Positions 7,705 to 64,000 of a stretch of DNA of 64,000 bases are shown here, piece by piece; positions within the stretch are counted from its first letter, which is position 1; the number at the start of each line of letters is the position of its first letter. This DNA comes from Candidatus Altimarinota bacterium (GTDB lineage Bacteria > Patescibacteriota > Gracilibacteria > UBA1369 > GCA-2718715): contig JBESAV010000001.1 of assembly GCA_041242255.1 (NCBI GenBank), positions 512,001-576,000 of the forward strand. The letters run 5' to 3'. The translations under genes and the position numbers were made by a program. Below the pieces are notes generated by a model, which was given only the letters and a program-made list of their open reading frames with translations, had not been told where the DNA came from and ran no database searches.

Positions 7705-7713
7705 GCCCAAAAC

Positions 7714-7744
7714 AAAAACCCCACCTTCACAGATGGGGTTTTTT
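7714..7744. terminator. Bidirectional intrinsic terminator
   Basis: aaaaacccca...tggggtttttt between convergent genes. Confidence 0.75.
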
Positions 7745-7759
7745 AATATTTCCTAATCT

Positions 7760-8349: not shown

Positions 8350-8394
8350 TTTAGTACTTTTTATATAAATTATAAGCGAATCAAACATACAAAT

Positions 8395-9033: not shown

Positions 9034-9068
9034 TATAATTATATTAGAACAAATAACTAATTATAAGC

Positions 9069-9401: not shown

Positions 9402-9402
9402 T

Positions 9403-9903: not shown

Positions 9904-9933
9904 TTACATCATATTATAATAGCACAGTTTGCC

Positions 9934-10347: not shown

Positions 10348-11269
10348 AGAATAAACTTATAAAGGAAGCAATCATAACACTTATCCACAATCCAGGTCCA
10401 GTGTCACCTTGTATCTCTTCTGACTCAGTAACCTCTTCCATAACCATTGCTTGGTTGTCATCTTCAGCAACCGTAAAGTCATTCTCAGATGTAGTATCTG
10501 TCTGACTAATAAGTTCATTAGTCACTTCTGCACTACTTTCTAAGTTATATTCCTGAATCACTTCATCTTCACTAACTGGCTCATCAACAGTCTCAACTTC
10601 AGCCACTTCTTGAGATTCCGGTTCGATGATCGAACTTGTATCAATAACAATGCTTTCCGACTCAGGATTCTCTCCTGGAGTTGAAGAAGGAAGTTCATTG
10701 ACTTCACTTTGTGACGCCTGATTATCTTCTGGGCTTTCTACAATGATCTCATCAGTTTCTGGCTCATTATCAACAGTTGTGCTTGCATCCAAGTTATCAT
10801 CTATCTCAACCTGTTCAGTTTCAGGAGCTTGCTGATCAGCTGAATTGCTAAAGTCTTCAGCTAAAATGTCATCAACTATTTGAGTAGAGTTTGTTTGTGG
10901 AAGTTCATTTACAGAACCTTTTAAATTTTGCGACTCAGAGTTTAGTAAAAATAAAAGCACCCCAGCCCCAATCATTAACAGTACAATTATCCCAGCAACA
11001 ATTTTAATAGAGTTACTATCACTTGAGCTACCTGAAGTAGCTTTTGATACCTTGATGTCTTCCGGAACCTTTACTTTAATCTCTTTCACTTCACTAACTT
11101 TTTTGTCCATGTCATCATTTCCTAATACAGGCTTTTCTTCCACTTGCTTATTATCATCAGAAGCCTTACTGGAATCTTTTTTTTCTAAAGTTAGGTCAAT
11201 TTTATTCGGACCCTTTTTTTTCTCATTATCATCTCCATCAATTCTTCCTGCCATTAGGTTAACAGACAT
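10316..11269 (-). CDS. Acidic low-complexity membrane protein with C-terminal TGP-TM-basic tail
   Basis: Internal TM segment, E/D/S/T-rich stalk, ends GDTGPGLWISVMIASFISLFYARK. Confidence 0.7.
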   Translation of the reverse strand: MSVNLMAGRIDGDDNEKKKGPNKIDLTLEKKDSSKASDDNKQVEEKPVLGNDDMDKKVSEVKEIKVKVPEDIKVSKATSGSSSDSNSIKIVAGIIVLLMIGAGVLLFLLNSESQNLKGSVNELPQTNSTQIVDDILAEDFSNSADQQAPETEQVEIDDNLDASTTVDNEPETDEIIVESPEDNQASQSEVNELPSSTPGENPESESIVIDTSSIIEPESQEVAEVETVDEPVSEDEVIQEYNLESSAEVTNELISQTDTTSENDFTVAEDDNQAMVMEEVTESEEIQGDTGPGLWISVMIASFISLFYARKNDTKLG

Positions 11270-11311
11270 TTCTCAAAAATTAATATTCATATAATTATAC
11301 CATACATACCT

Positions 11312-11335
11312 AAAACAAGACCTTCATAGGTCTTG
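11312..11335 (-). terminator. Intrinsic terminator after the 30-aa ORF
   Basis: caagacct-tcat-aggtcttg stem, followed by a U-tract on the minus strand. Confidence 0.65.
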
Positions 11336-11342
11336 CTCTAGT

Positions 11343-11435
11343 TTAAACTTGTGTTGTGAAAACAGATAGTGCTGGTAGAAGTGCAGTAACTATTAATCCT
11401 AAAATCAATAACACTCCAAGAATTTTCTTCGCCAT
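11343..11435 (-). CDS. 30-aa membrane miniprotein (not in the ORF track)
   Basis: Translated by hand as MAKKILGVLLILGLIVTALLPALSVFTTQV*. An extended -10-like TGGTATATT lies upstream and a terminator downstream. Confidence 0.65.
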   Translation of the reverse strand: MAKKILGVLLILGLIVTALLPALSVFTTQV

Positions 11436-11476
11436 AGTTTTAAACTTTATTCAACTACGACTAATATACCAGAAAT

Positions 11477-13573: not shown

Positions 13574-13574
13574 A

Positions 13575-49780: not shown

Positions 49781-51367
49781 ATGAAATACATACAAATTTT
49801 ATTTGTATCAATTCTTTTAGTGGGATGTGCATCCACAGCAGCCCAAGATTTACCAGAGTATTCAAATCAAACAAAAAGAATTGTATTACAAGACGGCGAC
49901 ACAATTGATCTAGTTGCAGACGAGGTAGAGATGAAAGTTAAAGATACACCATCCAAAATGCTAGCATACAATGGCACAATTCCTGGTCCAGTTATAACTG
50001 TAAAACAGGGAAGTACCATAAATCTAAACTTCATAAACAACCTAGAGGTTGACTCCTCTCTTCATTCACATGGGCTCAGGCTTAGAAATAAGTATGATGG
50101 AGTCCCAGGAGTGACCCAGGACGAAGTAAAGCCAGGCGAGACCTTTCGATATGAATTAGACTTCCCAGATGCTGGAGTATATTTTTACCATCCACATACA
50201 AGAGAAGACGTCCAACAAGATGCTGGACTATACGGGGCATTTCTGGTCCTTCCTTCTGAAAATGAATCAAATGAATTTGGTGTAAATCTTCAGGAGAATC
50301 ATCAGATAATTTTCCTCGATGATATTGAAGTAAGTTATAAAAACCAGATCATTAGGCAGGAATCTAAACCATACAAAACTTTAATGGGAAATTATGGTAA
50401 TCGCATGTTTATAAATGGAAAGTTAGACTCACCCGTAAACTTGCAGCCTTCAAACCTAAATTCAGAACAGATTTTAACCTTTGTAAACTCAGCAAACGCA
50501 AGACCGTATAAACTAAAGTCATCCTCAGGAATTCAAATGACACTCCTATCAGATGACGCAAGTGCCTATCAAAATGAGGAATTCATCCAGGAATTGGTCG
50601 TAGCCCCATCAGAAAGATACACTGTTCGTTTAAAATACATTCAGGAAGGACCTCAACAGATTTTCTCAGAAACTCCTAATAACTCTTTCCCAATAGCAAA
50701 AGTAGATGTATTGGGGCAATCTTTAGGGTCTACAAACACTGAACCAACTAATTTTACAGGTTTACAAATAGATCAATCACTAGTTAGTCAGTTCCAAACC
50801 ATGCCAATTAGCAAAACTTTAAGTCTCGATATGCTAATGGATACAAAATCAATGCGATCTGGAGGTATGTGGGAGATGCCATGCCACCAAATGCCAGATG
50901 GATCATGGATGGGAGACTGCGACGAGTCACTTCTAGAAAACTTATCAGCTGATCACCACCCAGATGGGATAGAATGGGAAGATGGTATGCGTGATATGAA
51001 TTCTAAATCAGGCCTACATAATGTATGGTGGGATTTAGTCGACAAAGACACAGGCCTTACAAATATGGATATTGAGTGGAATTTCCAAAAAGATGAGGTG
51101 GTAAAAATCCGTATAGAAAACAAAGCTGATTCAGCCCATCCAATGCAACACCCTATTCATCTTCATGGTCAAAGGTTTCTAGTTCTAAGCAAAGACAACC
51201 AACCTCAGACAAACCTGGCCTGGAACGATACAGTACTCGTACCAGCAGGAAGCACCTATGATATAGTTGTGGAGATGAGTAATCCAGGTACATGGATGAT
51301 CCATTGCCATATTCCAGAACACATGGAAGCTGGAATGATGATGACATTTGAAGTTCAAGAAAATTAA
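49781..51367 (+). CDS. Multicopper oxidase lipoprotein with a Met-rich insert
   Basis: HSHG, YHPH, HPIHLHG and HCHIPEHMEAGMM copper motifs; lipobox LVG-C; MPCHQMPDGSWMG insert. Confidence 0.96.
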   Translation: MKYIQILFVSILLVGCASTAAQDLPEYSNQTKRIVLQDGDTIDLVADEVEMKVKDTPSKMLAYNGTIPGPVITVKQGSTINLNFINNLEVDSSLHSHGLRLRNKYDGVPGVTQDEVKPGETFRYELDFPDAGVYFYHPHTREDVQQDAGLYGAFLVLPSENESNEFGVNLQENHQIIFLDDIEVSYKNQIIRQESKPYKTLMGNYGNRMFINGKLDSPVNLQPSNLNSEQILTFVNSANARPYKLKSSSGIQMTLLSDDASAYQNEEFIQELVVAPSERYTVRLKYIQEGPQQIFSETPNNSFPIAKVDVLGQSLGSTNTEPTNFTGLQIDQSLVSQFQTMPISKTLSLDMLMDTKSMRSGGMWEMPCHQMPDGSWMGDCDESLLENLSADHHPDGIEWEDGMRDMNSKSGLHNVWWDLVDKDTGLTNMDIEWNFQKDEVVKIRIENKADSAHPMQHPIHLHGQRFLVLSKDNQPQTNLAWNDTVLVPAGSTYDIVVEMSNPGTWMIHCHIPEHMEAGMMMTFEVQEN

Positions 51368-51378
51368 CCCACCAAACT

Positions 51379-52113
51379 ATGAAACACACATATAAAATCA
51401 ACGGAGCAACTTGCCAAAGCTGTGGAGAAAAAGTCTCAAAAGTTCTTACTCAGATTGATGGGATTTCCAAAGCAGATTCACCAGAAACAGGAATAGTTAT
51501 AGTAGAAATGACTAAGCATATCACTACAAAAGATATGAACAAAGCCTTGAAAGACTCTGGTCATGGTAAGTACTCACTTGAGATGACCCAGCACGAGCAG
51601 ACCTCCAGTCCAGACAACACAGATCAAGCCAAGTCATGGAAAGACTACTGGCCACTTATTCTAGTGTTAGGTTATGTACTCTTAGGAACAACCCTGGGTA
51701 TGTATCTCACAACAGATTGGTCACTAATGATGGGAATGAGGCTATTCATGGGACTGTTTTTCCTAGCTTTCTCATTCTTCAAGATTTTAGACATTCCCGG
51801 TTTTGCAATGAGCTACATGTCTTACGACATAGTCGCAGCTAAGTGGATGAAGTGGGGTTATATTTATCCATTCTTTGAGTTAGCCTTCGGAATAGGTTAC
51901 CTAGTTGGATGGCAACTTTTATACCTCAACATAATAGTTGCTATAGTCATGGCCATAAGCTTAGTCGGAGTAGTTAAATCAGTCCTAAACAAAAAACAAA
52001 TCCAATGCGCCTGCCTCGGAACAGGATTCGATCTTCCAATGAGCACAGTAACAATAGTTGAAGACGGAGCCATGGTCCTTATGGCGATTTGGATGATACT
52101 TAACCTAATATAA
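51379..52113 (+). CDS. Heavy-metal-associated (HMA) domain plus MauE/DoxX-like membrane domain
   Basis: GATCQSC; FMGLFFLAFSFFK, YPFFE, CACLG. Confidence 0.9.
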   Translation: MKHTYKINGATCQSCGEKVSKVLTQIDGISKADSPETGIVIVEMTKHITTKDMNKALKDSGHGKYSLEMTQHEQTSSPDNTDQAKSWKDYWPLILVLGYVLLGTTLGMYLTTDWSLMMGMRLFMGLFFLAFSFFKILDIPGFAMSYMSYDIVAAKWMKWGYIYPFFELAFGIGYLVGWQLLYLNIIVAIVMAISLVGVVKSVLNKKQIQCACLGTGFDLPMSTVTIVEDGAMVLMAIWMILNLI

Positions 52114-52115
52114 AA

Positions 52116-52628
52116 ATGAAAAAACTAATCTTACCACTAATTTTAATAGCAATCGTAATTGGAATACCATTCCTAACAATGCAAGAGAGTAAACTTCCTC
52201 CTGAAGTCCTCGAAGCAAATGCTGAAGTTAAAGTTCCAATAATGGAAAATAGCGGACATCAGTCTGATGTAAGCGGTATTCAATATAATTCTAACCCACC
52301 TACTTCTGGGCCACATTTTGCTGATTGGCACACAGAATGGACCTTTTATGAAGAAGAGCAGCCAATGGGTGGTTTAATTCACAATATGGAACATGGAGGA
52401 ATTGTTCTATTCTACGACCCAAGTATTTCAGATGAACAAAAGCAACTTTTATCAGATTACGTAGATGATACTTTTAAGATAATAGCCTCGCCTTACGAGA
52501 GACTTGAGGCTCCAATAGTTTTGGCAGCTTGGGGTGTCTATGAAGAGTTTGATGCCTTTGACTCAGATAGATTTGAGAGATTCTATAGGTTCAATCTAAA
52601 TAATGCCCCAGAAAACGTTTACCCTTAA
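52116..52628 (+). CDS. DUF3105-family protein
   Basis: YNSNPPTSGPH, IHNMEHGGI, AAWG. Confidence 0.9.
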   Translation: MKKLILPLILIAIVIGIPFLTMQESKLPPEVLEANAEVKVPIMENSGHQSDVSGIQYNSNPPTSGPHFADWHTEWTFYEEEQPMGGLIHNMEHGGIVLFYDPSISDEQKQLLSDYVDDTFKIIASPYERLEAPIVLAAWGVYEEFDAFDSDRFERFYRFNLNNAPENVYP

Positions 52629-52631
52629 GCC

Positions 52632-52955
52632 ATGAACTGGTTCTTCCCAATCCATTATTTCCTACACTTAATTTTCCCTGGAGTAGTTGCATACGCAGCT
52701 ACTCCTAAGCTTCCTCATAAATGGTGGAAAGTTTACATGGTTTTACTAGCAACAATGATCATCGACTTAGACCATCTCCTAGCGACACCAATCTTCGATC
52801 CAAATAGGTGCAGTATAGGTTTCCACCCACTTCATAGCCCAATAGCCATCGGAGTTTATGTCCTGATGATTTTCATCCCAAACTTCTGGGTTAGGGTAAT
52901 TGCCACAGGACTAATCTGGCATATTTTAGTCGACTTATTAGACTGCATGATATAA
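52632..52955 (+). CDS. DUF6122-like small membrane protein
   Basis: HY.LH, TMIIDLDHLLA.PIFDPNRCSIGFHPLHS. Confidence 0.8.
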   Translation: MNWFFPIHYFLHLIFPGVVAYAATPKLPHKWWKVYMVLLATMIIDLDHLLATPIFDPNRCSIGFHPLHSPIAIGVYVLMIFIPNFWVRVIATGLIWHILVDLLDCMI

Positions 52956-52979
52956 TTTAAATAAATTTAAAAATAAATA

Positions 52980-53429
52980 ATGAACAATTACAAAAAATTC
53001 GCTCTCATGATACTAAGCTCAAGCATTTTTATGTTTCTTGTAATGTATCTAAATATCTTCCAGTTATCTCATTTCTCGATAGGTCTAACACGAATCTACA
53101 TGACTCTCTTAATGGTAGCTCCTATGGTTTTAATCATGTTATTTTTCATGAAAGATATGTACAACAACAGCAAGTTTAATATAGCCATTATTTCAGGATC
53201 TATCGCCATCTTTATCATTAGCTTAATAGGTTTAAGGTCTCAGGTTTTAATAGGCGACATTCAGTGGATGAAAGCTATGATACCTCACCATTCTTCTGCC
53301 ATTCTAACAAGTTCTTACGCTAACCTAAAAGATCCAGAAGTCCAAGAATTAGCTCAAGAAATAATCCAAGCCCAAGAAAGAGAAATAGCAGAAATGAAAT
53401 CAATGATCGAACGACTTGAAGCAAAATAA
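52980..53429 (+). CDS. DUF305 (ferritin-like, CopM-related) membrane protein
   Basis: MIPHHSSAI...LAQEIIQAQEREIAEM. Confidence 0.9.
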   Translation: MNNYKKFALMILSSSIFMFLVMYLNIFQLSHFSIGLTRIYMTLLMVAPMVLIMLFFMKDMYNNSKFNIAIISGSIAIFIISLIGLRSQVLIGDIQWMKAMIPHHSSAILTSSYANLKDPEVQELAQEIIQAQEREIAEMKSMIERLEAK

Positions 53430-53438
53430 ATATTGAAA

Positions 53439-53464
53439 AACCCTTTAATAGAAATTAAAGGGTT
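53439..53464. terminator. Hairpin terminator between convergent genes
   Basis: aaccctttaat/attaaagggtt 11-bp stem. Confidence 0.7.
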
Positions 53465-53481
53465 GGTGTCTTCATCGACGA

Positions 53482-53814
53482 TCAATTAGAGAGATAAATT
53501 ATAAATTCTTGTTTAAGGAGCTCCAGCCTAGTACAAAGTATATTATGTTGACTAGATAAATCTCCATATGCAAGAATTGACTTAATGAAGGACAAATAAT
53601 CCAATAAATAATCATATGCATGGGCATATTTATTTGAAATTTCTTCATCATCTTTCATTAGTTCTGTTAACTCAATGATGAAGTCATTTCCAAGGTACTT
53701 GCTTGCTTCCTCGACAGTTAGTGCAGTAACCTTGAGATCCAAGTCACTTGTAAGTTTTTCCATTATGCTTCTGCCTTCACGAATTATAACTTCAAGATTC
53801 CTTTCCTCAGTCAC
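53482..53814 (-). CDS. Hypothetical 110-aa protein
   Basis: SD GAGAGG before a GTG start; consensus promoter upstream. Confidence 0.65.
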   Translation of the reverse strand: MTEERNLEVIIREGRSIMEKLTSDLDLKVTALTVEEASKYLGNDFIIELTELMKDDEEISNKYAHAYDYLLDYLSFIKSILAYGDLSSQHNILCTRLELLKQEFIIYLSN

Positions 53815-53905
53815 TTTAAACCTCTCTTGTTGATGTAAATGAACTTAACAGTTGTAGTTTAAGCACGGCTCACCGACTTAATCTAATCAATCTGTTAACA
53901 TTTCG

Positions 53906-53933
53906 ATTATACAAGCCTGTGTAAGTTTGTCAA
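53906..53933 (-). promoter_or_regulatory. Perfect consensus sigma70 promoter
   Basis: Minus strand TTGACA-16 nt-TATAAT. Confidence 0.8.
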
Positions 53934-54004
53934 GTAATGTGTTTATCTAAATAACTTACATGAGTTTTATCAAAGAATTAAGATTAGCACCTGAGAAAGG
54001 CTAA

Positions 54005-54265
54005 ATGGATTGGTTAAATATAGAAAAGAACATATATTGATGAGTAAGAAGTAATTCTTGGGAGCAAGTCGAATCTTTAATTGTTAGTCCAGAAGCTGAC
54101 CTTTCAGCTAGTATCTATGTAGATGAACAAGAATTTATACAAAGCTATATTTCAGAGGATGTATTTGAAGACTCAGTTGTTAATTACGGTGACTGCACTA
54201 GGTCACAATTAAATGCCCTAGGAAGTAGGTTAGAATCAATCGTCAACAGCACTTTAGACAAATAG
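54005..54265 (+). pseudogene. 86-codon ORF interrupted by in-frame TGA-TGA
   Basis: SD-like GAAAGG, ATG at 54005, TGA TGA at 54038-54043, then open in the same frame to TAG at 54265. Confidence 0.4.
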
Positions 54266-54354
54266 ATCTTTTGCTAGATGAGATTCAATACTAAGTAAAC
54301 CTAGTGTAGTATGTGTTTACTTTATTTCAAAATACGTATTCTCACCCAACAACT

Positions 54355-55566
54355 ATGACCAAAGCAAACCTATTCTCTCTAACAATCACATTAATTCTTT
54401 TCAGCATATCAGGCTGCACTTTTCAAGACCAAACCTCCAACACAAATGAAATCAACAAAAATCAGCCAGAGCTAACCAGCGAAATCACAACTCAAGAAAT
54501 AGATAGCATAAGCGCTGAGAAACCTGAAGAAACAGTAGAAGATTCAGATCAAAATCAAGAGCCAGAAGAGCCAGAATTTATTCTTCCTGACGTAGACTAC
54601 ACATCCCTACCAACCAAAGATGTGACTGTTGATTCTGTAAAGTTTTTCCAAGAACCAATAGAATTAGAAAGTATCGATGGATTAGAAAATACTGAGTTTG
54701 GTTATGTGACTGAGGGCAAATATAAAGATTATATTTTTGGTAATTCAAGAGAGTACTATCAGTTCAGTGATGCTCTGACTATGTTCTACTTGAGACCTCC
54801 AGATCAAAAGACTTTATATTACATTTCTGAATACCCTAGGTTTCAAGAAGAAAATCAAAGTATTTCAGATTTTAGTATTCCAAGTCTTGAGTTCCAAGAA
54901 GAAAGCATTACTGCCAAAGGTAACCAAATAACAACAGATGGTAGATTGTATTATGACAAGTATATAATAGATGAAATTCAAGATTATGAGACTGTAAGTG
55001 CAGAAGACACAGGTTACACCCTATACAAAGATGGTTGGGCCTTTTACAGAATCATTCAAGATGACTTTTATATTCTTTACCAATACATCCCTCAAGATGA
55101 AGAGCTAAAAAGCCTAATCGAATCTATGTCTAGCTTCGAAAACAAAAACCATTGGAGATACTTTTTAATGCAAAGGTATGACGATGGATATATCACAACA
55201 GTTAACACCGGATACATGGGACTATTTGATGACCAAGGTCTAATTCAAGGCAAAGAGAGTACTCTCAATTTCGATAACCTAGAGCTAATCCATGATGGTC
55301 CAGAACTAAATTTATACACAGTAAAAGAATTCCTAGATAATGAGGATTATGAGTCTCAACTTTTGCAAGAATTGTGGACAACATATCAAGATGATTTAGC
55401 ATCTATTTCAGCAAGTATAGCAAATGGAGAACAAAACATAAGAAATATTCCAAATGTACCAAAAGATGAATTCCTAACCATTAACCCTATGTTAATCCAA
55501 ACAGACAATATGGGTGAATTCTCAGTATACATACGCTCCGACATAGTTCAGCCATTTGAGGCTTAA
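54355..55566 (+). CDS. Acidic lipoprotein of unknown function
   Basis: Lipobox ISG-C; the likely start is ATG 54355 (MTKANLF). Confidence 0.7.
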   Translation: MTKANLFSLTITLILFSISGCTFQDQTSNTNEINKNQPELTSEITTQEIDSISAEKPEETVEDSDQNQEPEEPEFILPDVDYTSLPTKDVTVDSVKFFQEPIELESIDGLENTEFGYVTEGKYKDYIFGNSREYYQFSDALTMFYLRPPDQKTLYYISEYPRFQEENQSISDFSIPSLEFQEESITAKGNQITTDGRLYYDKYIIDEIQDYETVSAEDTGYTLYKDGWAFYRIIQDDFYILYQYIPQDEELKSLIESMSSFENKNHWRYFLMQRYDDGYITTVNTGYMGLFDDQGLIQGKESTLNFDNLELIHDGPELNLYTVKEFLDNEDYESQLLQELWTTYQDDLASISASIANGEQNIRNIPNVPKDEFLTINPMLIQTDNMGEFSVYIRSDIVQPFEA

Positions 55567-55609
55567 AATCAACGAATATACGACAAACGATACTTATTAA
55601 TCTAATTAG

Positions 55610-56287
55610 ATGAATATAATCAAACGATATTTGTACATAGCCATAGGCTTATGTACATATTCCTTGCTAGCAATACTAATTCCCAACTTTTTAGGTATAG
55701 AAACTAGTTCTCATGGAATAACTTTTGATGATTTTGATTTTTCCACTTTCTTATTAGTTTTTTTGGTTTTTATAATTTTGATATACAAAGCAATCTACAC
55801 TAAGTCAGAATACAAATACATTATTCTAATAACTTTTATGTATGCATTTTTGTTTGTTTCATATAGCACTCCTCGATTTCAAGTTATTGAATTATCCGAT
55901 CAACATAAAGATCGTAAGGTAAACGTGAATGGATCAGAGTCAGGTGCAATGAGTTATAGTTTCACTAATTTATATCCTGCAAATGATCAATATATAGTTA
56001 CTCATGAACCACCATTTACATTAATACATTCAAAAGTCGATCAACCATATAATCATGATTTAGAAGCTCAACCACACTGGTTAAATTCAAGGGTCTCAGG
56101 CTTTCCCTTTTTATGGTTCTTAGACCCGATTGGAGCTAGCGTACGTGCATCTATAAATTACCTACATTTCTTATTAAACATGATTGTTTATTTCATAGTC
56201 TTTTTAATTCCAAATCTTTTAACCAAGCTAATATTCCAAAAATTTACACCTTTAGTTTTTGGAGACCAAGATATAGAACATTCTTGA
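55610..56287 (+). CDS. Hypothetical multi-pass membrane protein
   Basis: About four TM segments; AT-rich. Confidence 0.6.
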   Translation: MNIIKRYLYIAIGLCTYSLLAILIPNFLGIETSSHGITFDDFDFSTFLLVFLVFIILIYKAIYTKSEYKYIILITFMYAFLFVSYSTPRFQVIELSDQHKDRKVNVNGSESGAMSYSFTNLYPANDQYIVTHEPPFTLIHSKVDQPYNHDLEAQPHWLNSRVSGFPFLWFLDPIGASVRASINYLHFLLNMIVYFIVFLIPNLLTKLIFQKFTPLVFGDQDIEHS

Positions 56288-56687
56288 TATTTTCTAATTT
56301 TTTTAGATAAGGCAAAACTTCCTTAGGAAACAAATTTATTTCTTCGACTTGATTTAAATCTATAATCTTAATATCAGTCAAAACTTGTTGCTTTTTTTCA
56401 GGATCAAAACCAAGCTTATAATTTTCATCGAGCGTTTTACAAAGTATATAAACTTCCAAACCAAAGCTTCCTTTATATTCTGTTTCTCTAACAAATACAA
56501 TTCTCTCAGCTTTAGCTTTTACATTTATTTCCTCATCGATTTCTCTCTCTATTGCTTCAAATAAAGATTCATTTCCTTCAACACCTCCTCCCGGAAAAAC
56601 ATAATTTGTACCAAAGGTATCGCTATCATGCCTCACCAAAACAATTTTATTTTCATTGATAATTATACCTCTTACTCCAACTTTCAT
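56244..56687 (-). CDS. NUDIX hydrolase
   Basis: FPGGGVEGNESLFEAIEREIDEE Nudix box. Confidence 0.92.
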   Translation of the reverse strand: MKVGVRGIIINENKIVLVRHDSDTFGTNYVFPGGGVEGNESLFEAIEREIDEEINVKAKAERIVFVRETEYKGSFGLEVYILCKTLDENYKLGFDPEKKQQVLTDIKIIDLNQVEEINLFPKEVLPYLKKLENIKNVLYLGLQKLKV

Positions 56688-56714
56688 TTTCTAATTTAAA
56701 TTACATTAATCTTC

Positions 56715-56900
56715 TCAACCCCCAAACAAACTCATCCATAAATTTATCTTTCTTCATATCATTTTGAAAAACAGAAAAGTAGTATCAATAATTTAGAAAG
56801 AGACCTTCGCAAGTATAAAAAACATTTAAATCCAAACTCGGTTCACCAAAGTAGACACATTTCGAACTGAATATTATGAAGAAATTATTAATTTACAAAA
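56715..56900 (+). pseudogene. Possible degraded C-terminal tail of a large serine recombinase
   Basis: Broken frames read LIHKFIFLHIILKNRKVVSII*KETFASI and FTKVDTFRTEYYEEI; pattern recognition only. Confidence 0.3.
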
Positions 56901-56975
56901 GCTAACTTTAGAAAAATACAAAGTAATTAAATTAAAAAGTACTATCAGAGCTAACTTGTACATTTATTATTTCAA

Positions 56976-57524
56976 ATGCTAGACTGCAGTCAAATAAAAA
57001 ATGAAAAAATGAGAGTTGGAGTAGGATTACTTTTAGACGAAGATTGTCATAATTCGATTAGAGAATTGCAAATAAACCTTTTAAGTAGAGGTCTTATTAA
57101 GAGTCCATTTATTCAGGAACCACATATAACAATCAAGTCACCTTTCGAGATTTCTACTATTCAAAATTTAGCTAACTACTTAGATGAAAAATTTGATAAT
57201 ACAAAAGAGATCATTGTAAAAACAAGTTCTTTAGATTTATTTGATAAAAATATTTTATATCAAGCGGTATCAAAAAACAAAATTCTACTAGATTTACATT
57301 ATGATCTGATCAAGTTTTGTAATGATAAAGGTGAATATGAAGGAGAAAATAAAGTTTTTCACATAACGATAGGGAGATCATTATCGAAGCAAATATTAGA
57401 GGAACAGATTAAATTTAAAAAAAATACCTGCAGTTTAATAGGGGTCGGTATTTTTTTATATAACGAAGAAACTAAATCTTGGATTGTAGTTTACAAAAAA
57501 AAGTTTATTGATTCTGACAATTAA
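56976..57524 (+). CDS. 2H phosphoesterase (2'-5' RNA ligase superfamily)
   Basis: Two HxT motifs: EPHITIK and FHITIGR. Confidence 0.88.
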   Translation: MLDCSQIKNEKMRVGVGLLLDEDCHNSIRELQINLLSRGLIKSPFIQEPHITIKSPFEISTIQNLANYLDEKFDNTKEIIVKTSSLDLFDKNILYQAVSKNKILLDLHYDLIKFCNDKGEYEGENKVFHITIGRSLSKQILEEQIKFKKNTCSLIGVGIFLYNEETKSWIVVYKKKFIDSDN

Positions 57525-57569
57525 CAATAATATCATCATAGAGATTTAAATATATTTTTAAGAAAAAAG

Positions 57570-59348
57570 ATGAAGTTACAAGAAATTTTACAAGTTGAAG
57601 AGAGTTTAAGCATACCTGAACAAGTTAATCGTGGAGATTTAGAATCAATTCAATCAAAAATACATGAAAGGGTAAGGCTTGTTACGGCAGCACTACCGTA
57701 TATAAACAACGTACCTCATTTAGGGCATATGGCAGGGAGTCATATTCCAGCTGATATTTTTGCCAGGTTTTCAAGAATGAAAGGCTATAATACTAAATTT
57801 ATAGGTGGTTCAGATGAGCATGGAACACCATCTGAGTTGGCTGCTGATTCATTAGGTCTTAATCCTGAAATCTTTTGTGACAAACTCCATGAGGTACATA
57901 AACAAGTTTATGATTGGTTTGATATATCTTATGATTACTATGGTAGAACATCAGAGTATAGGCATAGTCAAATAGTTGAATCATTTTTTTTAGGTTTACT
58001 AGATAATGATTTTATAGCAGAGAGAGAAGAACATATGTTTTTTGATATAGAAAAAGATAGATTTTTACCTGGAAGATACGTTTTAGGTACATGTTCCAAT
58101 TGTGCCAGCACAAATATGCCATATGATCAATGTGATAACTGTGGGGTTCTTTTTAATACTGATAACTTCCTCGATCCAGTTTCAACCTTATCTAACAGTA
58201 CTCCTGAGATTAGAAGCACTAAGCATTTATTTATTGATTTACCACTTCTACAGCCAGTAATTGAAGATTGGTTTAAGAGTAAAAAAGACTGGAATACTCT
58301 AACAAGAGGAATTACAAGCTCCTGGCTTAATCAAGGTCTTGAGCAAAGAAGCATAACAAGGGACTTGAACAGAGGGGTTCATGTCAATTATCCAGGTTAT
58401 GAAGATAAAGTTTTTTATGTATGGTTTGAGGCTCCAATTGCATATGTTTCTTTTTCAGATTCAGTTGGTGAAATTCAAGAATTTTGGGAGTCCAATCAAA
58501 GTGAAGTTTTTCACTTTTTAGGCAAAGATAATATACCTTTTCATACTATAATATGGCCTTCTATTATAGAGGGTTCTAATATTGGAATAAATAAGCCTGA
58601 AAAAGTTATTGGTTATTCTTATCTGAATTATGAAGGAGAAAAATTCTCGAAGAGCAGAAATGTAGGAGTCTTTTGTGATAAGCTCTTAGAATCCGACTTC
58701 CCAGTTGATGTATTAAGAGCATATATAACGCTTATTTTACCTGAATCTTCAGACGCAAATTTTAACTGGGAAGATTTAGTTTCCAAAATTAACAATGAGG
58801 TAATAGCAAACTTTGGTAATTATATTAATAGAGTCTTATCCTTTTTATTTAAGAAAAAAGGGGGGCAGTTAGATTCAATCCAAGCAGAGGATTTTGATGA
58901 CTTAGATAGGAATTTTATACAAGATATTTTCAACCTATTTTTAGAAATTGATGCAGATTTAGAAGACTGTAATTTTAAAAAAGCATTTAAAGGTGTTTTA
59001 AGCTTATCCTCATTAGGAAATAAGTTTTTCCAAGATTCCAAACCTTGGAAATTTATTTCTGAAAATCCTGATTACGTAAATAGAAAATTATTTTTATGCG
59101 TTTATTTAATAAAGGTACTAGGAATTGTTTCATCCCCTTTTATACCAGAAACATCTAACACAATCATGAAAATGTTAGGGAAAGCAAATAGTAATTGGAT
59201 GGACGCCTTAGATTACAGTGATATCAGTGGTATAAAGATAGACAAAAACCCAGAGTTGCTCTTTAAAAGATTAGAAGATGATTTTATAGAGAGTATGAAA
59301 GATTCAACTGAAGGTCATACAAACCTAGCTAGCTATTTCTATGAATGA
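57570..59348 (+). CDS. metG: Methionyl-tRNA synthetase (island-borne, probably a second copy)
   Basis: ALPYINNVPHLGH (HIGH), DEHG, Zn knuckle CSNC/CDNC, YVWFEAP, GKDNIPFH, KFSKS (KMSKS), GNYINR, PWK. Confidence 0.93.
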   Translation: MKLQEILQVEESLSIPEQVNRGDLESIQSKIHERVRLVTAALPYINNVPHLGHMAGSHIPADIFARFSRMKGYNTKFIGGSDEHGTPSELAADSLGLNPEIFCDKLHEVHKQVYDWFDISYDYYGRTSEYRHSQIVESFFLGLLDNDFIAEREEHMFFDIEKDRFLPGRYVLGTCSNCASTNMPYDQCDNCGVLFNTDNFLDPVSTLSNSTPEIRSTKHLFIDLPLLQPVIEDWFKSKKDWNTLTRGITSSWLNQGLEQRSITRDLNRGVHVNYPGYEDKVFYVWFEAPIAYVSFSDSVGEIQEFWESNQSEVFHFLGKDNIPFHTIIWPSIIEGSNIGINKPEKVIGYSYLNYEGEKFSKSRNVGVFCDKLLESDFPVDVLRAYITLILPESSDANFNWEDLVSKINNEVIANFGNYINRVLSFLFKKKGGQLDSIQAEDFDDLDRNFIQDIFNLFLEIDADLEDCNFKKAFKGVLSLSSLGNKFFQDSKPWKFISENPDYVNRKLFLCVYLIKVLGIVSSPFIPETSNTIMKMLGKANSNWMDALDYSDISGIKIDKNPELLFKRLEDDFIESMKDSTEGHTNLASYFYE

Positions 59349-60795
59349 TGTTTTAAGTAATAATTATAGAAAATGGCTTCACGAAGTTTTAGACTTATCT
59401 ATAGATTTCAAATTAGATAGTAGAGTTAACAAAAAAATAATATCCAATAGTGACATTAAAAAACTTTTAGCAAGAAAGTTACCATTTGAAGGAATAGATC
59501 TTGATGATATTTTAGATAGTTTTAAAACAGAAGTTATGCCATTTTGCACCAACTTTTCATCTAAAAACTTTATGGGATTCCCAGATTCAGGAAACTCTGT
59601 TGCAGCATTGGGAGCTTCAATTATAAAAGATTTTTTTCAACAAAATATAATAAATCAATCTTTTTGTTCACCCTCGGGAACATTTATAGAGATAAATGTT
59701 ATAAACTGGTTAAGAGATTTAATTGGTTATGAAACGAAAGATAACATATCAAGTATTATGGATGTGGGAGGTATTATCACAAACGGTGGAACTATGAGTA
59801 ATGCTATAGGTATTATGTTAGCACGTGAAAATAAGTCTCCCAATACACTTGCTAACGGCGTAAAGGCACCATCAAGATATAAGATAATTGTTCCAAAAGG
59901 TATTGGTCACTACAGTGTCAAATCCGCTCAGATGTGGCTTGGATGTGGTAACAATTTAATTGAAGTTCCAACTATCAATTTCAAATATGACTTAGAAAAA
60001 CTCAAAGAGGCACTTAATAATAATAAGGGTAATGTAATGGGGTTAGTAGCTTATGCTGGAGATAGTAGAACAATGACATGCGATGATTTTGATGAAATTT
60101 ACAACCTTGTGAAATCTATTGATGAAAATATATGGTTGCATGCTGATGCATGTCATGGGTTTTCCTTAAGTTTTAGCGAGCAGTTAAAAGAGAAAATTAA
60201 AGGTATCAATAAATTTGATAGTATAACAATTGATCCTCATAAGGTTATGTTAACTCCATATGTAATTAGTGCCATTTTAGTTAAAGATCCTGCTAAACTT
60301 AAAAGTGTTTCCTCTATATCTGACTTAATAATGAAGGAGCAATTCGCATTTGGTCAAATAACTCCATTCATAGGAAGTAAGTCTTGGGAGTCATTAAAGT
60401 TATGGTTTATGATGTTAAATTATGGAAAAGAAGGTTTACAAAATATGGTAAATGAAAGACACAATAGGGCAAAGTACTTACATGAAAAAATTAAAGAAAA
60501 TGAGAATTATATAACTCTTAATGAAGTAGACATTAATTCAGTAATGTTTATGGTTAAACCAAGTAAATGGGATGGTGATATTATTAAACTAAATAATTTT
60601 AATAGAAAAATTTACGACAAAATAATAGAAGATGGTTTATATTATTTACATACATTTCCAATTGAAGATTCAGGCGTTATATCTAAAGGAGAAACTCTAA
60701 AACCTCTAAGATATATGTCTGGAAATCCAAATTTAAAAGAAAAAGATATAGATGATATGATTAATTACATTGAAAAAATAAGTAAAAGTTTATAA
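59341..60795 (+). CDS. PLP-dependent group II amino-acid decarboxylase
   Basis: GGTMSN, HYSV, WLHADACHG, DSITIDPHK, SLKLW. Confidence 0.93.
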   Translation: MNDVLSNNYRKWLHEVLDLSIDFKLDSRVNKKIISNSDIKKLLARKLPFEGIDLDDILDSFKTEVMPFCTNFSSKNFMGFPDSGNSVAALGASIIKDFFQQNIINQSFCSPSGTFIEINVINWLRDLIGYETKDNISSIMDVGGIITNGGTMSNAIGIMLARENKSPNTLANGVKAPSRYKIIVPKGIGHYSVKSAQMWLGCGNNLIEVPTINFKYDLEKLKEALNNNKGNVMGLVAYAGDSRTMTCDDFDEIYNLVKSIDENIWLHADACHGFSLSFSEQLKEKIKGINKFDSITIDPHKVMLTPYVISAILVKDPAKLKSVSSISDLIMKEQFAFGQITPFIGSKSWESLKLWFMMLNYGKEGLQNMVNERHNRAKYLHEKIKENENYITLNEVDINSVMFMVKPSKWDGDIIKLNNFNRKIYDKIIEDGLYYLHTFPIEDSGVISKGETLKPLRYMSGNPNLKEKDIDDMINYIEKISKSL

Positions 60796-61508
60796 TGTTA
60801 GAATCTATAATAGATACGTTAGAAACGCAGCCCTTCCCTACTATTATATATGGCTCTTTTGCAACAGATAACAATACACAAAAATCAGATTTAGATTTAT
60901 TCTTTATAGATGATACAACAGACTCAGACGAAAACTTTGAATCTTTACTTTGCCTAGTTTTAGATATTCATTCTCGTCATGGCCTAAAAATAGACAATGA
61001 GGTACCTTATAAAAATAAACTAATAGTAAATAGTTTAGATTTAAGAAAATCTTTAAGGAGCGAAGGATTTAACATTTCTAATGATGATTTATACATCCCA
61101 GAAATAGAAAAAAGTCATACTTTTTTAAATTCTTATAAAGTAAGATTAAGATTAATATTTAATGCTTTTACAACTCCACACATTATATTAAATTGTTTGG
61201 ACGAGAGCTTATCTGAAATGAGAAGTAGTTTTGAAATTAAATTAGTCTTAATTCTATTAGCGCTACACTCATCACAAGAAAAAATTACTTTTTCTTCTCT
61301 ATTGCATAAAGCTTTATATTCGGAAGCAGGAGCATCTGAAGACATGTATTTAGGCTATAAAATCAATGAAACTGTAATTAATAATCTAAAGATGATAATT
61401 TCAAGCACATTAAAAAAACTTGAAAATACTGGGATTGTTTGTTTGACGAAAAATCAAATAGTACTTACAGTTGATAAGGAAGAATTACTCTCTATTATAA
61501 AAAGTTAA
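60795..61508 (+). CDS. Pol-beta-superfamily nucleotidyltransferase-domain protein
   Basis: IYGSFA.....SDLDL motif; D.EVPY..KL and YLGYK motifs downstream. Confidence 0.8.
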   Translation: MLESIIDTLETQPFPTIIYGSFATDNNTQKSDLDLFFIDDTTDSDENFESLLCLVLDIHSRHGLKIDNEVPYKNKLIVNSLDLRKSLRSEGFNISNDDLYIPEIEKSHTFLNSYKVRLRLIFNAFTTPHIILNCLDESLSEMRSSFEIKLVLILLALHSSQEKITFSSLLHKALYSEAGASEDMYLGYKINETVINNLKMIISSTLKKLENTGIVCLTKNQIVLTVDKEELLSIIKS

Positions 61509-61512
61509 TATT

Positions 61513-62412
61513 ATGGAAAGACCTTTTGATTATTCTATATCTAGTGAAGGAATAGTAAAATCATTCGATTTTGATTATGATTTAATCCAAAGTAGGGGTG
61601 ATCAAATTGGGGTTAGTAAATTGATAAGTAATCCAGTATTTGTAGTGGGATCACCAAGGTCAGGCACAACGGTTTTAGGAAATGTATTATCTTTACATGA
61701 CAGGATAGGTACTGGGGAAGAATCTTTATTTTTACTTCATCTTTTTAGAATTTTTTCAGATCTTCACAAAGGAGATAATAGAAGAAAAACCAGAAATCTA
61801 TCTGAATATATCGAAGAAGATGATTTATTATTAAATATGCAAGAATTTTCAGATAGGATAATGGGTAGTTTACTCCAAAGAAAAAACAAAGATATTTATC
61901 TTGATCATACTCCTTGGTATGGATCAATTTCTGGATTTATAAAATTATTGTATTCTGATTCAAAATTTATACATATAATTAGAGACGGACGTCAAGTGGT
62001 ACGCTCTTTAGGAGAATCATACAACAAAGGTTTTTCGTGGGCTGGTAAAAGTTTTGAGCATAGAGTAAAGATTTGGGTTTCTCAAGTTCAAAATTGTTCC
62101 AAAATGCAGCAACATTTTGAAAGTGATTATTTAGAAGTTTATTATAATACACTTCATGATACTCCTCTTAGTTTATTCAACAGTATATTTTGTTTTTTAG
62201 GTTTAGAAAATAATGATGAAATATTAGATGGGCTATCCGTTAGCTATGCCACTCCAGTTTCAGGAATTACTAAAGAAGAGATGAGTGTTGGTTATGACAA
62301 TAATGGATGGCCTCAGAATTGGACTAGTGAAGAAATAGATACATTTTATTGCTTAGCCTCTGATTTAATGGAAGAAAAGTTTGGTGACAAATGGGATACC
62401 ATCTATATATAA
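61513..62412 (+). CDS. PAPS-dependent sulfotransferase
   Basis: VFVVGSPRSGTT (5'-PSB), DHTP, KFIHIIRDGRQVVRS (3'-PB). Confidence 0.92.
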   Translation: MERPFDYSISSEGIVKSFDFDYDLIQSRGDQIGVSKLISNPVFVVGSPRSGTTVLGNVLSLHDRIGTGEESLFLLHLFRIFSDLHKGDNRRKTRNLSEYIEEDDLLLNMQEFSDRIMGSLLQRKNKDIYLDHTPWYGSISGFIKLLYSDSKFIHIIRDGRQVVRSLGESYNKGFSWAGKSFEHRVKIWVSQVQNCSKMQQHFESDYLEVYYNTLHDTPLSLFNSIFCFLGLENNDEILDGLSVSYATPVSGITKEEMSVGYDNNGWPQNWTSEEIDTFYCLASDLMEEKFGDKWDTIYI

Positions 62413-62530
62413 GTTTCAAAAAACTTTTAACTAGTTATTATTTCTATTTAATAACACACAAGTATTCACTATATTGTTATTAAATCATACTCTAACTTTA
62501 TATTTTTATAATCTGTATTTAAACTTTTAA

Positions 62531-62762
62531 ATAGAATTACACAGTGTTTATGACGAAAAAGTTTTGTACATAGCCAAAAAACCGTTCTGCTACATCATCA
62601 AATGTAACAACATGTCGGACTGGTGCTCAGAAACTCATCTCTCTTGAACCAATGATAAAGCACTTAATCACCACAGATATGACAGAGTTTATGTCTGTAG
62701 ATACTAGCAAATGCTATGCATTAATAGAGGACCACCAAAAAGAATTAGAGGTAATATTTTAG
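62531..62762 (+). pseudogene. Possible second degraded recombinase-like C-terminal tail
   Basis: IELHSVYDEKVLYIAKKPFCYIIKCNNMSDWCSETHLS*, then a shifted frame MIKHLITT...; pattern recognition only. Confidence 0.3.
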
Positions 62763-62829
62763 ATAGCATAGAGGAATAGTCATTATTATCTTCTAAGTAG
62801 GCATTAATAAGCAGGGGTATTCTTAAACC

Positions 62830-64000
62830 TTATAGTCTCTTATTCACTTTATTAAATATTTCTTGACTATATTTATTTGTAGATTTTAGTTTAGAGAGGT
62901 AGTAAACATATTTTGTAGTGTATTCTTGTATATGAAATTTATATGCATATTCTTTTACTAAGACATACAAGTCACTAGTTAATGAATTAATTTTATCACA
63001 ATCACTTAACGCTCTTATAGTATCTTGATGGTTAATGATTGTATCCATAATTTCTTTAGTAACTGTATATAGTGAATTATATTCATCATTAAAAAATTTT
63101 TCAGTACTGCTGACACTTGATTCTACTAGATTATTTAGATGTACATGCATTATTTTCCATATACCTTCACCTAGTGATATTAAGTATCCAGAAGTATTAT
63201 TATTTACACTCTTTAACATTTGTTTATAGATATCTAAAAATCTAATAAAATGTAATGTATCACTAAAGACAGCATATTGGCTATCATGTATTGAGGAATA
63301 TATTTCATGCTTTAGAAATCGTGGGCCTAGTAGAAATTCTTTTGCATAAATATCATCATTATCGAATAGTATAGAGTCTTCATTTAATATAGATCGATGT
63401 ACAATTGATATAACAAGATTATCAATTGGGTCAGTATATCTTAAATCAGGATTACATTCTAATCCCATATATATAGAAAATATGAATTCTTGTGAGTCAA
63501 CTACTACATAATCCATAAATTTTTCATTACTTGGTATTACCCAAGATAGAATTGAATACAAGTTATCTTCTGTAGAGTTAACAACAATTTGATCTATGTT
63601 GAAAATAAATAAATCTACTACATTTAAGAATCTATTTTTAGATTTATAACTAATTTCATCAAATATAAAACGCTTAAGTTTATCTTTATCTATAAAGTTA
63701 AAATCCAAATGCCTGGTAGTAGAAAAGTGAATGAAAATAATTAACCCAATGATTAAAAATAAGAAAATGATCATATCCAATACAACTATAAATAATGGAT
63801 TTATAACTAAGGCATACAAATTTTCATATCTTAAAATTATAAACGGAAAAAACAATGCTAGGTACTTAAAAATTAGAACAATTAGGGCCATGCCTGTCCA
63901 AAAAAATAAAGCTTGGTTTATTAGCTTCTTATATAGACTCATCCTAAATTTCCACTCATTAGTTCTAAGCTGATATGCTGCTAATACAATACCAATAACT
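62830..64000 (-). CDS. Hypothetical AT-rich membrane protein, 5' end beyond the window
   Basis: The frame stays open upstream of 63942 to the window edge (VIGIVLAAYQLRTNEWKFR-MSLYK); N-terminal TM segments. Confidence 0.65.
   Translation of the reverse strand, partial: VIGIVLAAYQLRTNEWKFRMSLYKKLINQALFFWTGMALIVLIFKYLALFFPFIILRYENLYALVINPLFIVVLDMIIFLFLIIGLIIFIHFSTTRHLDFNFIDKDKLKRFIFDEISYKSKNRFLNVVDLFIFNIDQIVVNSTEDNLYSILSWVIPSNEKFMDYVVVDSQEFIFSIYMGLECNPDLRYTDPIDNLVISIVHRSILNEDSILFDNDDIYAKEFLLGPRFLKHEIYSSIHDSQYAVFSDTLHFIRFLDIYKQMLKSVNNNTSGYLISLGEGIWKIMHVHLNNLVESSVSSTEKFFNDEYNSLYTVTKEIMDTIINHQDTIRALSDCDKINSLTSDLYVLVKEYAYKFHIQEYTTKYVYYLSKLKSTNKYSQEIFNKVNKRL

Follow-up and report, generated by a model that had tools for sequence, protein, structure and literature searches.

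A probable mobile gene cassette joining a second, foreign methionyl-tRNA synthetase to a decarboxylase and a nucleotidyltransferase in a Gracilibacteria genome

The genome of the marine Candidatus Altimarinota bacterium (Patescibacteriota, Gracilibacteria; GenBank assembly GCA_041242255.1) is a single contig of 1,000,477 bp (98.5% complete). In the 64,000-nucleotide stretch analysed here (JBESAV010000001.1, positions 512,001 to 576,000 of the forward strand; henceforth the window), we found a putative operon of five genes encoding a 2H phosphoesterase, a second methionyl-tRNA synthetase (MetRS), a group II pyridoxal phosphate (PLP)-dependent decarboxylase, a nucleotidyltransferase of the Pol-beta type and a sulfotransferase, with a NUDIX hydrolase gene divergent from them (Table 1). 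The MetRS, decarboxylase and nucleotidyltransferase very probably form one functional, mobile unit: their genes recur together in Bacteria and Archaea, their sequences co-vary and some are fused. We tentatively read the operon as the local version of a mobile cassette whose enzymes would synthesise an amine or amino-acid compound tethered to a nucleotide, and in which the extra MetRS would serve as an insensitive replacement target.

Families were assigned by Pfam cut-offs, which all six products exceeded, the nucleotidyltransferase barely (Polbeta, 27.1 against 26.9 bits). The catalytic motifs that the initial annotation, made from the letters alone, had described as intact in the five genes are all present in the translations, among them the two HxT motifs of the 2H enzyme (PHITIK and FHITIG; PF13563, 35.3 against 27 bits), and the divergent gene has a Nudix box (G-x5-E-x7-REIDEE). 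Its gene positions, overlaps and 4-nt gap also hold, with the first gap corrected from 46 to 45 nt. In order, 45 nt separate the first two genes, the next two junctions overlap by 8 nt and by 1 nt (TAATG), and 4 nt separate the last two genes. It is this spacing that suggests an operon; promoter-like sites (36, with 44.4 expected) and terminator-like sites (2, with 2.2 expected) were no more frequent than in shuffled sequences. Rfam at gathering scores returned nothing in the window, so the operon is preceded by neither a T-box nor a riboswitch on this criterion.

Linkage of the three core genes

We scanned genomes at one per species and obtained 209 decarboxylase relatives, of which the best 80 loci were taken (relatives 35–60% identical in 79 of the 80). 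Genes were counted among six-frame open reading frames by blastp at E <= 1e-5, over the 79 loci with a decarboxylase (within these best 80 of 209), where short contigs depress the counts, and over a full-flank subset of 29 loci, in which 7 kb or more was available to either side. The nucleotidyltransferase was present in 73 of the 79 loci and in 27 of the 29 full-flank ones, the decarboxylases of the two full-flank loci without it being the most divergent of all (41% and 35% identity). MetRS followed with 54/79 and 25/29. The 2H phosphoesterase was found in 10/79 (2/29 full-flank), the island-type NUDIX in 2/79 and the sulfotransferase in 1/79. A fourth gene absent from this genome, for a PLP enzyme of about 340 aa, occurred in 45/79 loci; among solved structures this enzyme is closest to threonine-phosphate decarboxylase (CobD) and histidinol-phosphate aminotransferase (HisC), which act on phosphorylated substrates. 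The cassette core is the decarboxylase plus the nucleotidyltransferase, mostly with the CobD/HisC-like enzyme, and an extra MetRS of the MetRS2 type (see below) is its regular companion. The 2H enzyme, sulfotransferase and NUDIX are variable accessories. The initial annotation had treated the five operon families as one candidate pathway and suggested testing their co-occurrence; three of them co-occur widely and are even fused, and the 2H enzyme and sulfotransferase, like the divergent NUDIX, do not.

The 79 loci span 18 phylum labels, among them several lineages of the candidate phyla radiation (CPR), Bacillota from animal and human gut, Pseudomonadota, Myxococcota, Elusimicrobiota, Bdellovibrionota, Chloroflexota, Melainabacteria and two groups of DPANN archaea. 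Within the phylum of the window the decarboxylase is rare (4 of 401 sampled genomes, this one included). One of the other three (G136) has MetRS, decarboxylase and nucleotidyltransferase together with an adenosine 5'-phosphosulfate (APS) kinase and a class I/II aminotransferase-fold gene, and also a second, host-type MetRS. No tRNA gene was found travelling with the cassette in 60 loci scanned.

Within the loci, the nucleotidyltransferase is fused to MetRS once (L029), to the decarboxylase three times (L038, L078 and L092) and to the CobD/HisC-like enzyme in 13 cases. Independent fusions came from a library of 1.84 billion representative proteins searched with a profile of 34 nucleotidyltransferases, in which Pfam domains on the long hits revealed MetRS (P0127, P0136), the decarboxylase in both orders (P0260, P0233, P0231), an aminotransferase fold (P0138, P0183, P0129) and a HAD hydrolase (P0221). 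The nucleotidyltransferase family is a small one, counting 246 members in this library at E <= 1e-30, or 359 when the limit is relaxed to 1e-10. These fusions mark the nucleotidyltransferase as the hub of the set and indicate that the link within the trio is functional, not merely positional. In addition, the three proteins show correlated identity matrices across 48 cassettes (r 0.76–0.80, 999 permutations, p 0.001) in a test that leaves host relatedness in.

Of the two core enzymes, the decarboxylase is a clear member of its family (PF00282, 162 against 27 bits), with a DPHK motif whose PLP lysine, K301, is invariant in the decarboxylase alignment (A1). It lies far below the NCBIfam equivalog cut-offs (PanP 95 against 606, MfnA 92 against 299, RhbB 89 against 900), thus matching none of these subfamilies of known substrate, and its best relatives in the PDB are at E 2e-26. 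No methionine decarboxylase was named among the decarboxylase matches listed, and viral contigs compared with the decarboxylase alignment gave 381 pattern matches and no relative.

The nucleotidyltransferase keeps its GS...DxD...D motif (G20, S21, D32, D34 and D67 invariant in 34 sequences) and had no sequence match in the PDB. Its AlphaFold model (pLDDT 95) could be superposed over the whole length on Tam41, a CTP:phosphatidate cytidylyltransferase known as the mitochondrial and bacterial CDP-diacylglycerol synthase (PDB 6ig2, 7ecd). The better superposition has a Z of 10.0, with 185 residues at an rmsd of 3.9 A, and the other a Z of 9.0, the Foldseek match being weak (E 3e-3, TM 0.41). Both proteins have a nucleotidyltransferase domain followed by a winged helix; they differ in that sequence identity is 12–14% and that there is no sign of a lipid substrate for the cassette enzyme. 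Judging from the model, the likeness is one of architecture and need not mean family membership. A predicted complex of MetRS and nucleotidyltransferase scored 0.00 in two runs without controls and carries no weight either way.

The second MetRS and its origin

The genome has two MetRS genes, and the initial annotation had suggested looking for the separate housekeeping metG that we found elsewhere in it (512 aa, ~G000:C1:858437-859975). The closest solved relatives of this host copy are the enzymes of Aquifex aeolicus, Thermus, S. aureus and M. tuberculosis, which makes it MetRS1 in the usage of PMC9071491. The island copy is nearest to human cytosolic MetRS (5gl7) and that of Pyrococcus abyssi (1rqg) and is therefore of the MetRS2 type. 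The two share about 24% identity. Among 5.8 billion clustered proteins the best non-self match of the island MetRS was only 45% identical, and its named matches belong to DPANN archaea and Gracilibacteria. With a host-type copy elsewhere and such distant, foreign best matches, the island MetRS is neither the sole copy nor vertically inherited.

The island enzyme appears complete. It scores 432.9 bits against PF09334 (cut-off 20.1), 500.4 against TIGR00398 (cut-off 336.35) and 554.7, slightly below the cut-off of 587, against the full-length equivalog PRK00133. It has the HLGH, KFSKS and CxxC...CxxC motifs and is alignable with 5gl7 and 1rqg. All 34 aligned cassette MetRS retain HIGH, KMSKS and the four zinc-knuckle cysteines, and in all of them the methionine-pocket W/A/Y and KDN..FH and the anticodon residues N417, R421 and W493 are invariant. 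Such conservation of catalytic, methionine-pocket and anticodon residues points to selection for tRNA charging, as one would expect if the enzyme were a replacement target, and the cassette MetRS is predicted to be a complete, functional synthetase. A MetRS-like domain of the hydrazine-synthetase type was set aside, since the island MetRS is a full-length protein whose anticodon residues are invariant.

In a quick maximum-likelihood tree (LG+G4, 84 rows), all 57 cassette-linked MetRS fall into a single clade together with DPANN database matches, split from the host-type copies with support 100* and from two E. coli-like housekeeping enzymes with an unstarred SH-aLRT of 87. A subclade of 47 rows (99*) consists exclusively of cassette MetRS. 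The island MetRS sits with those of Peregrinibacteria and Gracilibacteria cassettes, inside a clade containing DPANN (98*); the phylogeny proposed by the initial annotation thus sets it apart from the MetRS of its host lineage. The nearest MetRS to that of the window are in loci L099, L063, L097 and L040, and the nearest decarboxylase and nucleotidyltransferase in L033, L030, L037, L026, L035 and L031. Because the closest relatives come from different cassettes, the MetRS of the window cassette has evidently been exchanged. Some cassettes (L030, L095, L096, L060) have two MetRS2-type genes, the second one in L060 being a 375-aa fragment.

Possible functions of the cassette

An extra synthetase inside a small gene cluster may protect its owner from the product or supply an activated amino acid, and this frame, put forward in the initial annotation, is still the one that best accommodates the data; the larger interpretation built on it stood as regards the second, foreign MetRS and the linkage of the trio and fell as regards the five-family unit. 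The pathway that we tentatively favour would start with the nucleotidyltransferase transferring a nucleoside monophosphate (NMP) to a substrate derived from an amino acid, at a phosphate or hydroxyl group, to give nucleotide-tethered intermediates. The PLP enzyme or enzymes would then turn the tethered amino acid into an amine by decarboxylation or transamination, and lineage-specific tailoring enzymes and nucleotide or phosphoester hydrolases (here the sulfotransferase, 2H phosphoesterase and NUDIX) would finish, trim or detoxify the product. This product would interfere with methionine activation, and the cassette MetRS, structurally unlike the MetRS1 of the host, would sustain translation. 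The tether is suggested by the Tam41-like fold of the nucleotidyltransferase and by the CobD/HisC relatives acting on phosphorylated substrates. The MetRS is read as a replacement target since it is complete, conserved in its tRNA-recognition residues and of another structural type than that of the host. A second, divergent copy in the cluster with a housekeeping copy elsewhere is a hallmark of self-resistance, and the cassette-linked MetRS is such an extra copy in nine of the ten cassette genomes checked (G000, G136, G427, G428, G429, G431, G434, G435 and G436, the exception being G430, an archaeal draft of 0.8 Mb).

The neighbours of the core change from lineage to lineage, and being of the kind found in small-molecule pathways they count in favour of a biosynthetic cassette. 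We found a type I phosphodiesterase/nucleotide pyrophosphatase (NPP) in 12 loci, HAD proteins in seven, a second NUDIX family, a B12-radical SAM enzyme and a RimL-like GNAT in six each, another radical SAM enzyme in five and ATP sulfurylase/APS kinase in three. Further lineage-dependent neighbours are SPASM and MiaB-like radical SAM enzymes, a SAM methyltransferase, an amidohydrolase, a CAT-like acetyltransferase and ABC ATPases. The 2H enzyme is an accessory of CPR-type cassettes. Serine recombinases also lie near the core, in seven loci. A cultured carrier of an enlarged cassette is plasmid pRML02 of Bacillus cereus HN001 (L124, record 99718-115042), with the order metG, DUF6005, a relative of the nucleotidyltransferase, an aminotransferase-fold gene, a CatA-like acetyltransferase, an acyl carrier protein, the decarboxylase (51.5% identical), an adenylate-forming enzyme, a three-gene ABC transporter (exporter) and then an integrase.

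The sulfotransferase (PF13469, 88.1 against 27 bits) contains GSPRSGTT and RDGR..S, which we take to be the loops binding 3'-phosphoadenosine 5'-phosphosulfate (PAPS), and its relatives in the PDB are polyketide synthase (PKS)/CurM sulfotransferase domains and TPST. That it tailors the product, as first proposed, is not supported in that form: APS kinase (PF01583) is absent from this genome, the same search finding it in 11 of 14 reference genomes, so that the enzyme would have no home-made PAPS. Genes for PAPS do occur in three cassettes (L030, L047, L094). Of ten metagenomic loci found with the sulfotransferase, the cassette adjoins in one only (L135). As the two stand side by side only here, in L083 and in L135, sulfation would be an occasional add-on.

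In 14 loci of gut Bacilli and Clostridia (including L039, L047, L056, L058, L059, L064, L067, L072, L075, L081, L088 and L089), a RelA/SpoT-type gene lies directly upstream of the decarboxylase. Its protein of about 485 aa has the HD, synthetase and TGS parts without the C-terminal regulatory part, and its position may reflect shared ancestry or conserved host synteny.

Several known systems resemble parts of this arrangement. A second synthetase within the cluster confers self-resistance in the cases of mupirocin (IleRS), albomycin (SerRS) and agrocin 84 (LeuRS). The cassette is like these clusters in having a divergent, complete second synthetase beside biosynthetic-type genes, a housekeeping copy elsewhere and a location on mobile DNA; it is unlike them in its enzymes and in the occasional fusion of the synthetase to the nucleotidyltransferase, and immunity would here be by analogy. 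Microcin C (MccB, MccD, MccE) is an aminoacyl-adenylate mimic targeting AspRS; a PLP decarboxylase acts on its nucleotide-bound amino-carboxypropyl group, and immunity comes from a RimL-like acetyltransferase fused to a biosynthetic domain. Unlike microcin C, the cassette showed neither an adenylating enzyme of the MccB type nor a precursor peptide, and the microcin decarboxylase is of another fold type. In FR-900098 biosynthesis, FrbH has a fused CobD-like decarboxylase domain, and a Nudix enzyme performs the release step. The cassette shares with FrbH a nucleotidyltransferase coupled or fused to a CobD/HisC-type enzyme, the possible use of a nucleotide as transient handle and nucleotide hydrolases in the cluster. 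It does not match that pathway in that the FrbH nucleotidyltransferase is MobA-like (PF12804) and that of the cassette Pol-beta, the CobD/HisC-like partner is found in relatives and not in this genome, and FR-900098 biosynthesis has no MetRS; a PEP mutase, which belongs to such phosphonate clusters, was not seen, no search aimed at it having been made. FrbH is described as cytidylylating L-2-amino-4-phosphonobutyrate (PMC6697681). As to the target, horizontally acquired MetRS2 makes MetRS1 hosts insensitive to MetRS1 inhibitors (PMC8165550, PMC9071491). A natural product aimed at MetRS was not found in the literature searched.

A number of observations weigh against the synthetase being a replacement target in a working pathway, and they keep our confidence a little short of an even chance. 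The alignment of cassette MetRS reveals no active-site change that would account for insensitivity, and the split of their clade from the two E. coli-like enzymes is the one with unstarred support. The extra synthetase does not always accompany the biosynthetic genes: in all five genomes checked whose cassette has no linked MetRS, the host-type MetRS is the only one (these are drafts, and three of the five loci are short-flanked), and 2 of 27 full-flank cassettes with decarboxylase and nucleotidyltransferase have no MetRS, so that the core can exist without it. The nearest solved relatives of the decarboxylase act on 2,4-diaminobutyrate (DABA), glutamate, cysteine sulfinate and lysine, not on methionine; the chemistry first suggested, from methionine to an amine and on to a non-hydrolysable mimic of Met-AMP, thus finds no support in that form. 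Part of the co-variation may be carried by the host relatedness left in that test. No exporter was recognised in this island. Since the genome has neither a CobD/HisC-like enzyme nor APS kinase, the version found here may lack parts, rely on a host cell or be in decay. Finally, an enzymatic partnership would account for the recurrent fusions of nucleotidyltransferase and MetRS no less well than immunity would.

This last point leads to the alternative we take most seriously, while considering it unlikely, namely that MetRS is a working pathway enzyme whose Met-AMP or Met-tRNA is coupled to what the decarboxylase and nucleotidyltransferase produce, be it an amine or a nucleotide. The fusions in L029, P0127 and P0136 and the conserved methionine pocket are what it would predict, and the ascamycin/dealanylascamycin cluster of Streptomyces sp. 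JCM9888 offers a parallel. According to PMC4257720, that cluster has two AlaRS-like genes, APS kinase, sulfate adenylyltransferase, a sulfotransferase, a B12-radical SAM enzyme and a methyltransferase, and ascamycin is an alanyl-capped sulfamoyl-adenosine, i.e. of the class of aminoacyl-adenylate mimics. A synthetase gene beside sulfation, B12-radical SAM and methyltransferase themes recurs in our loci, the differences being that the ascamycin synthetases are AlaRS-like, that the source lists neither a group II decarboxylase nor a Pol-beta nucleotidyltransferase, and that just a few cassette versions have sulfation genes. Against MetRS as supplier, the host enzyme could provide Met-tRNA without a second gene, the core has no tRNA-dependent transferase (GNAT proteins are in six loci only), the anticodon residues, needless in an enzyme that makes only the adenylate, are invariant in 34/34, cassettes without any extra MetRS exist, and the MetRS of the window looks exchangeable, its nearest relatives being unlike those of the core pair.

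Two further readings explain fewer facts than these two. In one, which we hold improbable, the cassette is a tRNA-directed or anti-phage/antagonism module in which the nucleotidyltransferase and the 2H enzyme act on tRNA-Met or its 3' end and MetRS recognises or rescues the tRNA. The winged-helix C-terminus of the nucleotidyltransferase, the 2H enzyme of 10 loci, the RelA/SpoT-type gene upstream in 14 and the OLD/GajA-like ATPase on the same island (see below) would suit it, and so would weak matches in PADLOC-DB 2.0 to candidate families, of the nucleotidyltransferase to PDC-M05A (E 1.4e-5) and PDC-S09 (E 1.9e-4) and of the NUDIX to PDC-S07 (E 1e-13). The nucleotidyltransferase matches, however, extend only over the generic core, and PADLOC-DB 2.0 gave none for the decarboxylase, 2H enzyme or sulfotransferase. 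The decarboxylase and CobD/HisC-like enzyme, the commonest partners and fusion mates, would have no role on tRNA, no tRNA gene accompanies the cassette in the 60 loci, and the decarboxylase was not found in the viral contigs scanned. A variant in which a new amine modification of tRNA-Ile2 replaces TilS was dropped, as TilS is present in the genome and no new route is needed.

The other reading, to which we give equally little credence, has the cassette making an NDP-amino-alcohol or similar head group for surface decoration (CDP-ethanolamine-like), with MetRS a mere frequent passenger. A Tam41-like fold speaks for NMP transfer to phosphate, the CobD/HisC-like partner would fit, and one locus (L024, G240:C1:44500-64499) has the decarboxylase beside two other nucleotidyltransferases, two APH-family kinases, GT2/GT4 glycosyltransferases and a weak arylsulfotransferase-like propeller, with no extra MetRS. 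That decarboxylase is however distant (38% identity), the nucleotidyltransferases next to it have no blastp match to the island one, and the locus may represent a different pathway, directed at the cell surface. Head-group synthesis also leaves the MetRS of 25/29 full-flank loci and its fusion unexplained, and glycosyltransferases are not among the recurrent neighbours.

A chance assembly of unrelated cargo genes on a mobile island, to which the non-conserved sulfotransferase, 2H enzyme and NUDIX and the lack of promoter or terminator support for a single transcript would be congenial, is very improbable: linkage, co-variation and fusions of the trio across 18 phylum labels contradict it for the core, and it could apply to the accessories only.

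Island setting and implications

The foreign base composition that the initial annotation attributed to the operon was borne out against the whole genome. The 5.5-kb cassette has a GC of 0.297, the mean of 5.5-kb genome windows being 0.364 (sd 0.017), and only 0.6% of 1990 such windows are as low; its 14-kb surroundings (GC 0.300) are the lowest among 987 genome windows of the same size. The low-GC block begins at about window position 53,400, after copper-homeostasis genes, and ends in a large serine recombinase gene whose 3' end overlaps tRNA-Leu(gag). An att direct repeat was not found, the 20 largest direct-repeat families (L009:2500-19600) not involving tRNA-Leu (L009 is the locus of the window cassette, with coordinates equal to window coordinates minus 50000). 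The tRNA-Leu loci of seven relatives, only about 3 kb long, showed no flank protein match and no synteny. When the 20-kb locus was compared as DNA with 30 relatives, the matches listed were nearly all to tRNA-Leu, with a few short, weak others and none over the cassette genes. With neither an att repeat nor an empty insertion site in the relatives compared, the left edge of the island is set by composition only.

Table 1. Features of the operon, the island and its surroundings (window positions unless marked L009).
Feature	Position	Strand	Evidence
Low-GC genomic island	53430..64000, continuing past window end to ~window-equivalent 69374	.	GC profile
Island cargo, 417 aa, lipoprotein-like signal (one N-terminal hydrophobic segment, then ..SGC)	54313..55566	+	hydropathy scan
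Island cargo, 225 aa, three predicted membrane segments	55610..56287	+	hydropathy scan
NUDIX hydrolase, divergent from operon	56244..56687	-	Pfam 45.2 bits, Nudix box
2H phosphoesterase	56976..57524	+	Pfam 2_5_RNA_ligase2 35.3 bits
Second MetRS, MetRS2 type, complete with anticodon-binding domain	57570..59348	+	tRNA-synt_1g 432.9, Anticodon_3 63.5 bits
Group II PLP-dependent decarboxylase	59341..60795	+	Pyridoxal_deC 162 bits
Pol-beta nucleotidyltransferase, C-terminal winged helix	60795..61508	+	Polbeta 27.1 bits
PAPS-type sulfotransferase	61513..62412	+	Sulfotransfer_3 88.1 bits
Joints in X5 contigs	L009:12620-19288 (window-equivalent 62620-69288)
Membrane-anchored protein start, 409 aa, no family, cut by window end	62830..64000	-
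409-aa protein and ATPase pair	62830-64000 and on to L009:12830-15815
Large serine recombinase, 514 aa	L009:17765-19309
tRNA-Leu(gag)	L009:19288-19374

Other cargo of the island includes two proteins (417 and 225 aa) without a Pfam, NCBIfam, PADLOC or PHROG match, which their hydropathy suggests to be envelope proteins of no recognised family, and one further protein without recognised family. The 409-aa protein, with three N-terminal membrane segments, adjoins an OLD/GajA/AriA-like AAA ATPase of 553 aa beyond the window (PADLOC AriA E 9e-19, GajA E 5e-16), and the two could be a separate cargo, a two-gene unit of defence type. Between the ATPase gene and the next one lies an intergenic element of about 80 nt (L009:15914-15996, window-equivalent 65914-65996) with no Rfam match and two more copies in the genome (G000:C1:635070-635151 and 86623-86691; 82% and 73% identity). 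To the left of the island is a copper-handling set (window 50111-53429) comprising a multicopper oxidase, an HMA-MauE fusion, DUF3105, DUF6122 and DUF305.

The block is also present, from L009 3811 to 12625, in contigs (X5) of a run from a second study on a related strain, with 195 of 7381 letters differing over most of the cassette. Two weak joints there, one from 12620 to the tRNA-Leu edge at 19288 (30 letters on the shorter side) and one from 12625 back to 6844 (72 letters), may reflect a cassette flanked by other cargo, or a five-gene block that is duplicated or circular. A joint from 1503 to 14947 in X2 and X3, with just 23 letters on the shorter side, was discounted.

Clusters with their own synthetase are a known kind; the enzyme set, the specificity for MetRS and the spread over CPR, DPANN and gut organisms were not previously known, and a full-text literature search (subscription journals and supplementary files lying outside it) found no paper on this cassette. 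That it represents a widespread lateral pathway whose natural product, a nucleotide-linked inhibitor or a methionyl conjugate, targets methionine activation, with a complete MetRS built in and sometimes fused, is a wider claim that we regard as doubtful. It is directly testable, given a cultured carrier in the B. cereus plasmid and compact versions of three to five genes, and the cassette MetRS would offer a resistance-guided handle on the product. If true, no family of natural products known before would share its target, MetRS, an essential enzyme already used as a drug target, and it would give a natural origin to horizontally transferred MetRS2 resistance, with drug-insensitive MetRS2 genes wandering among MetRS1 hosts. 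It would also bring a new enzyme logic, in which a Tam41-like nucleotidyltransferase is the hub of two PLP enzymes and an aminoacyl-tRNA synthetase. The carriers would be CPR bacteria, DPANN archaea, gut Firmicutes and a Bacillus cereus plasmid, so that symbionts with tiny genomes and gut bacteria would share a mobile chemical weapon or signal based on nucleotide-tethered amine chemistry.

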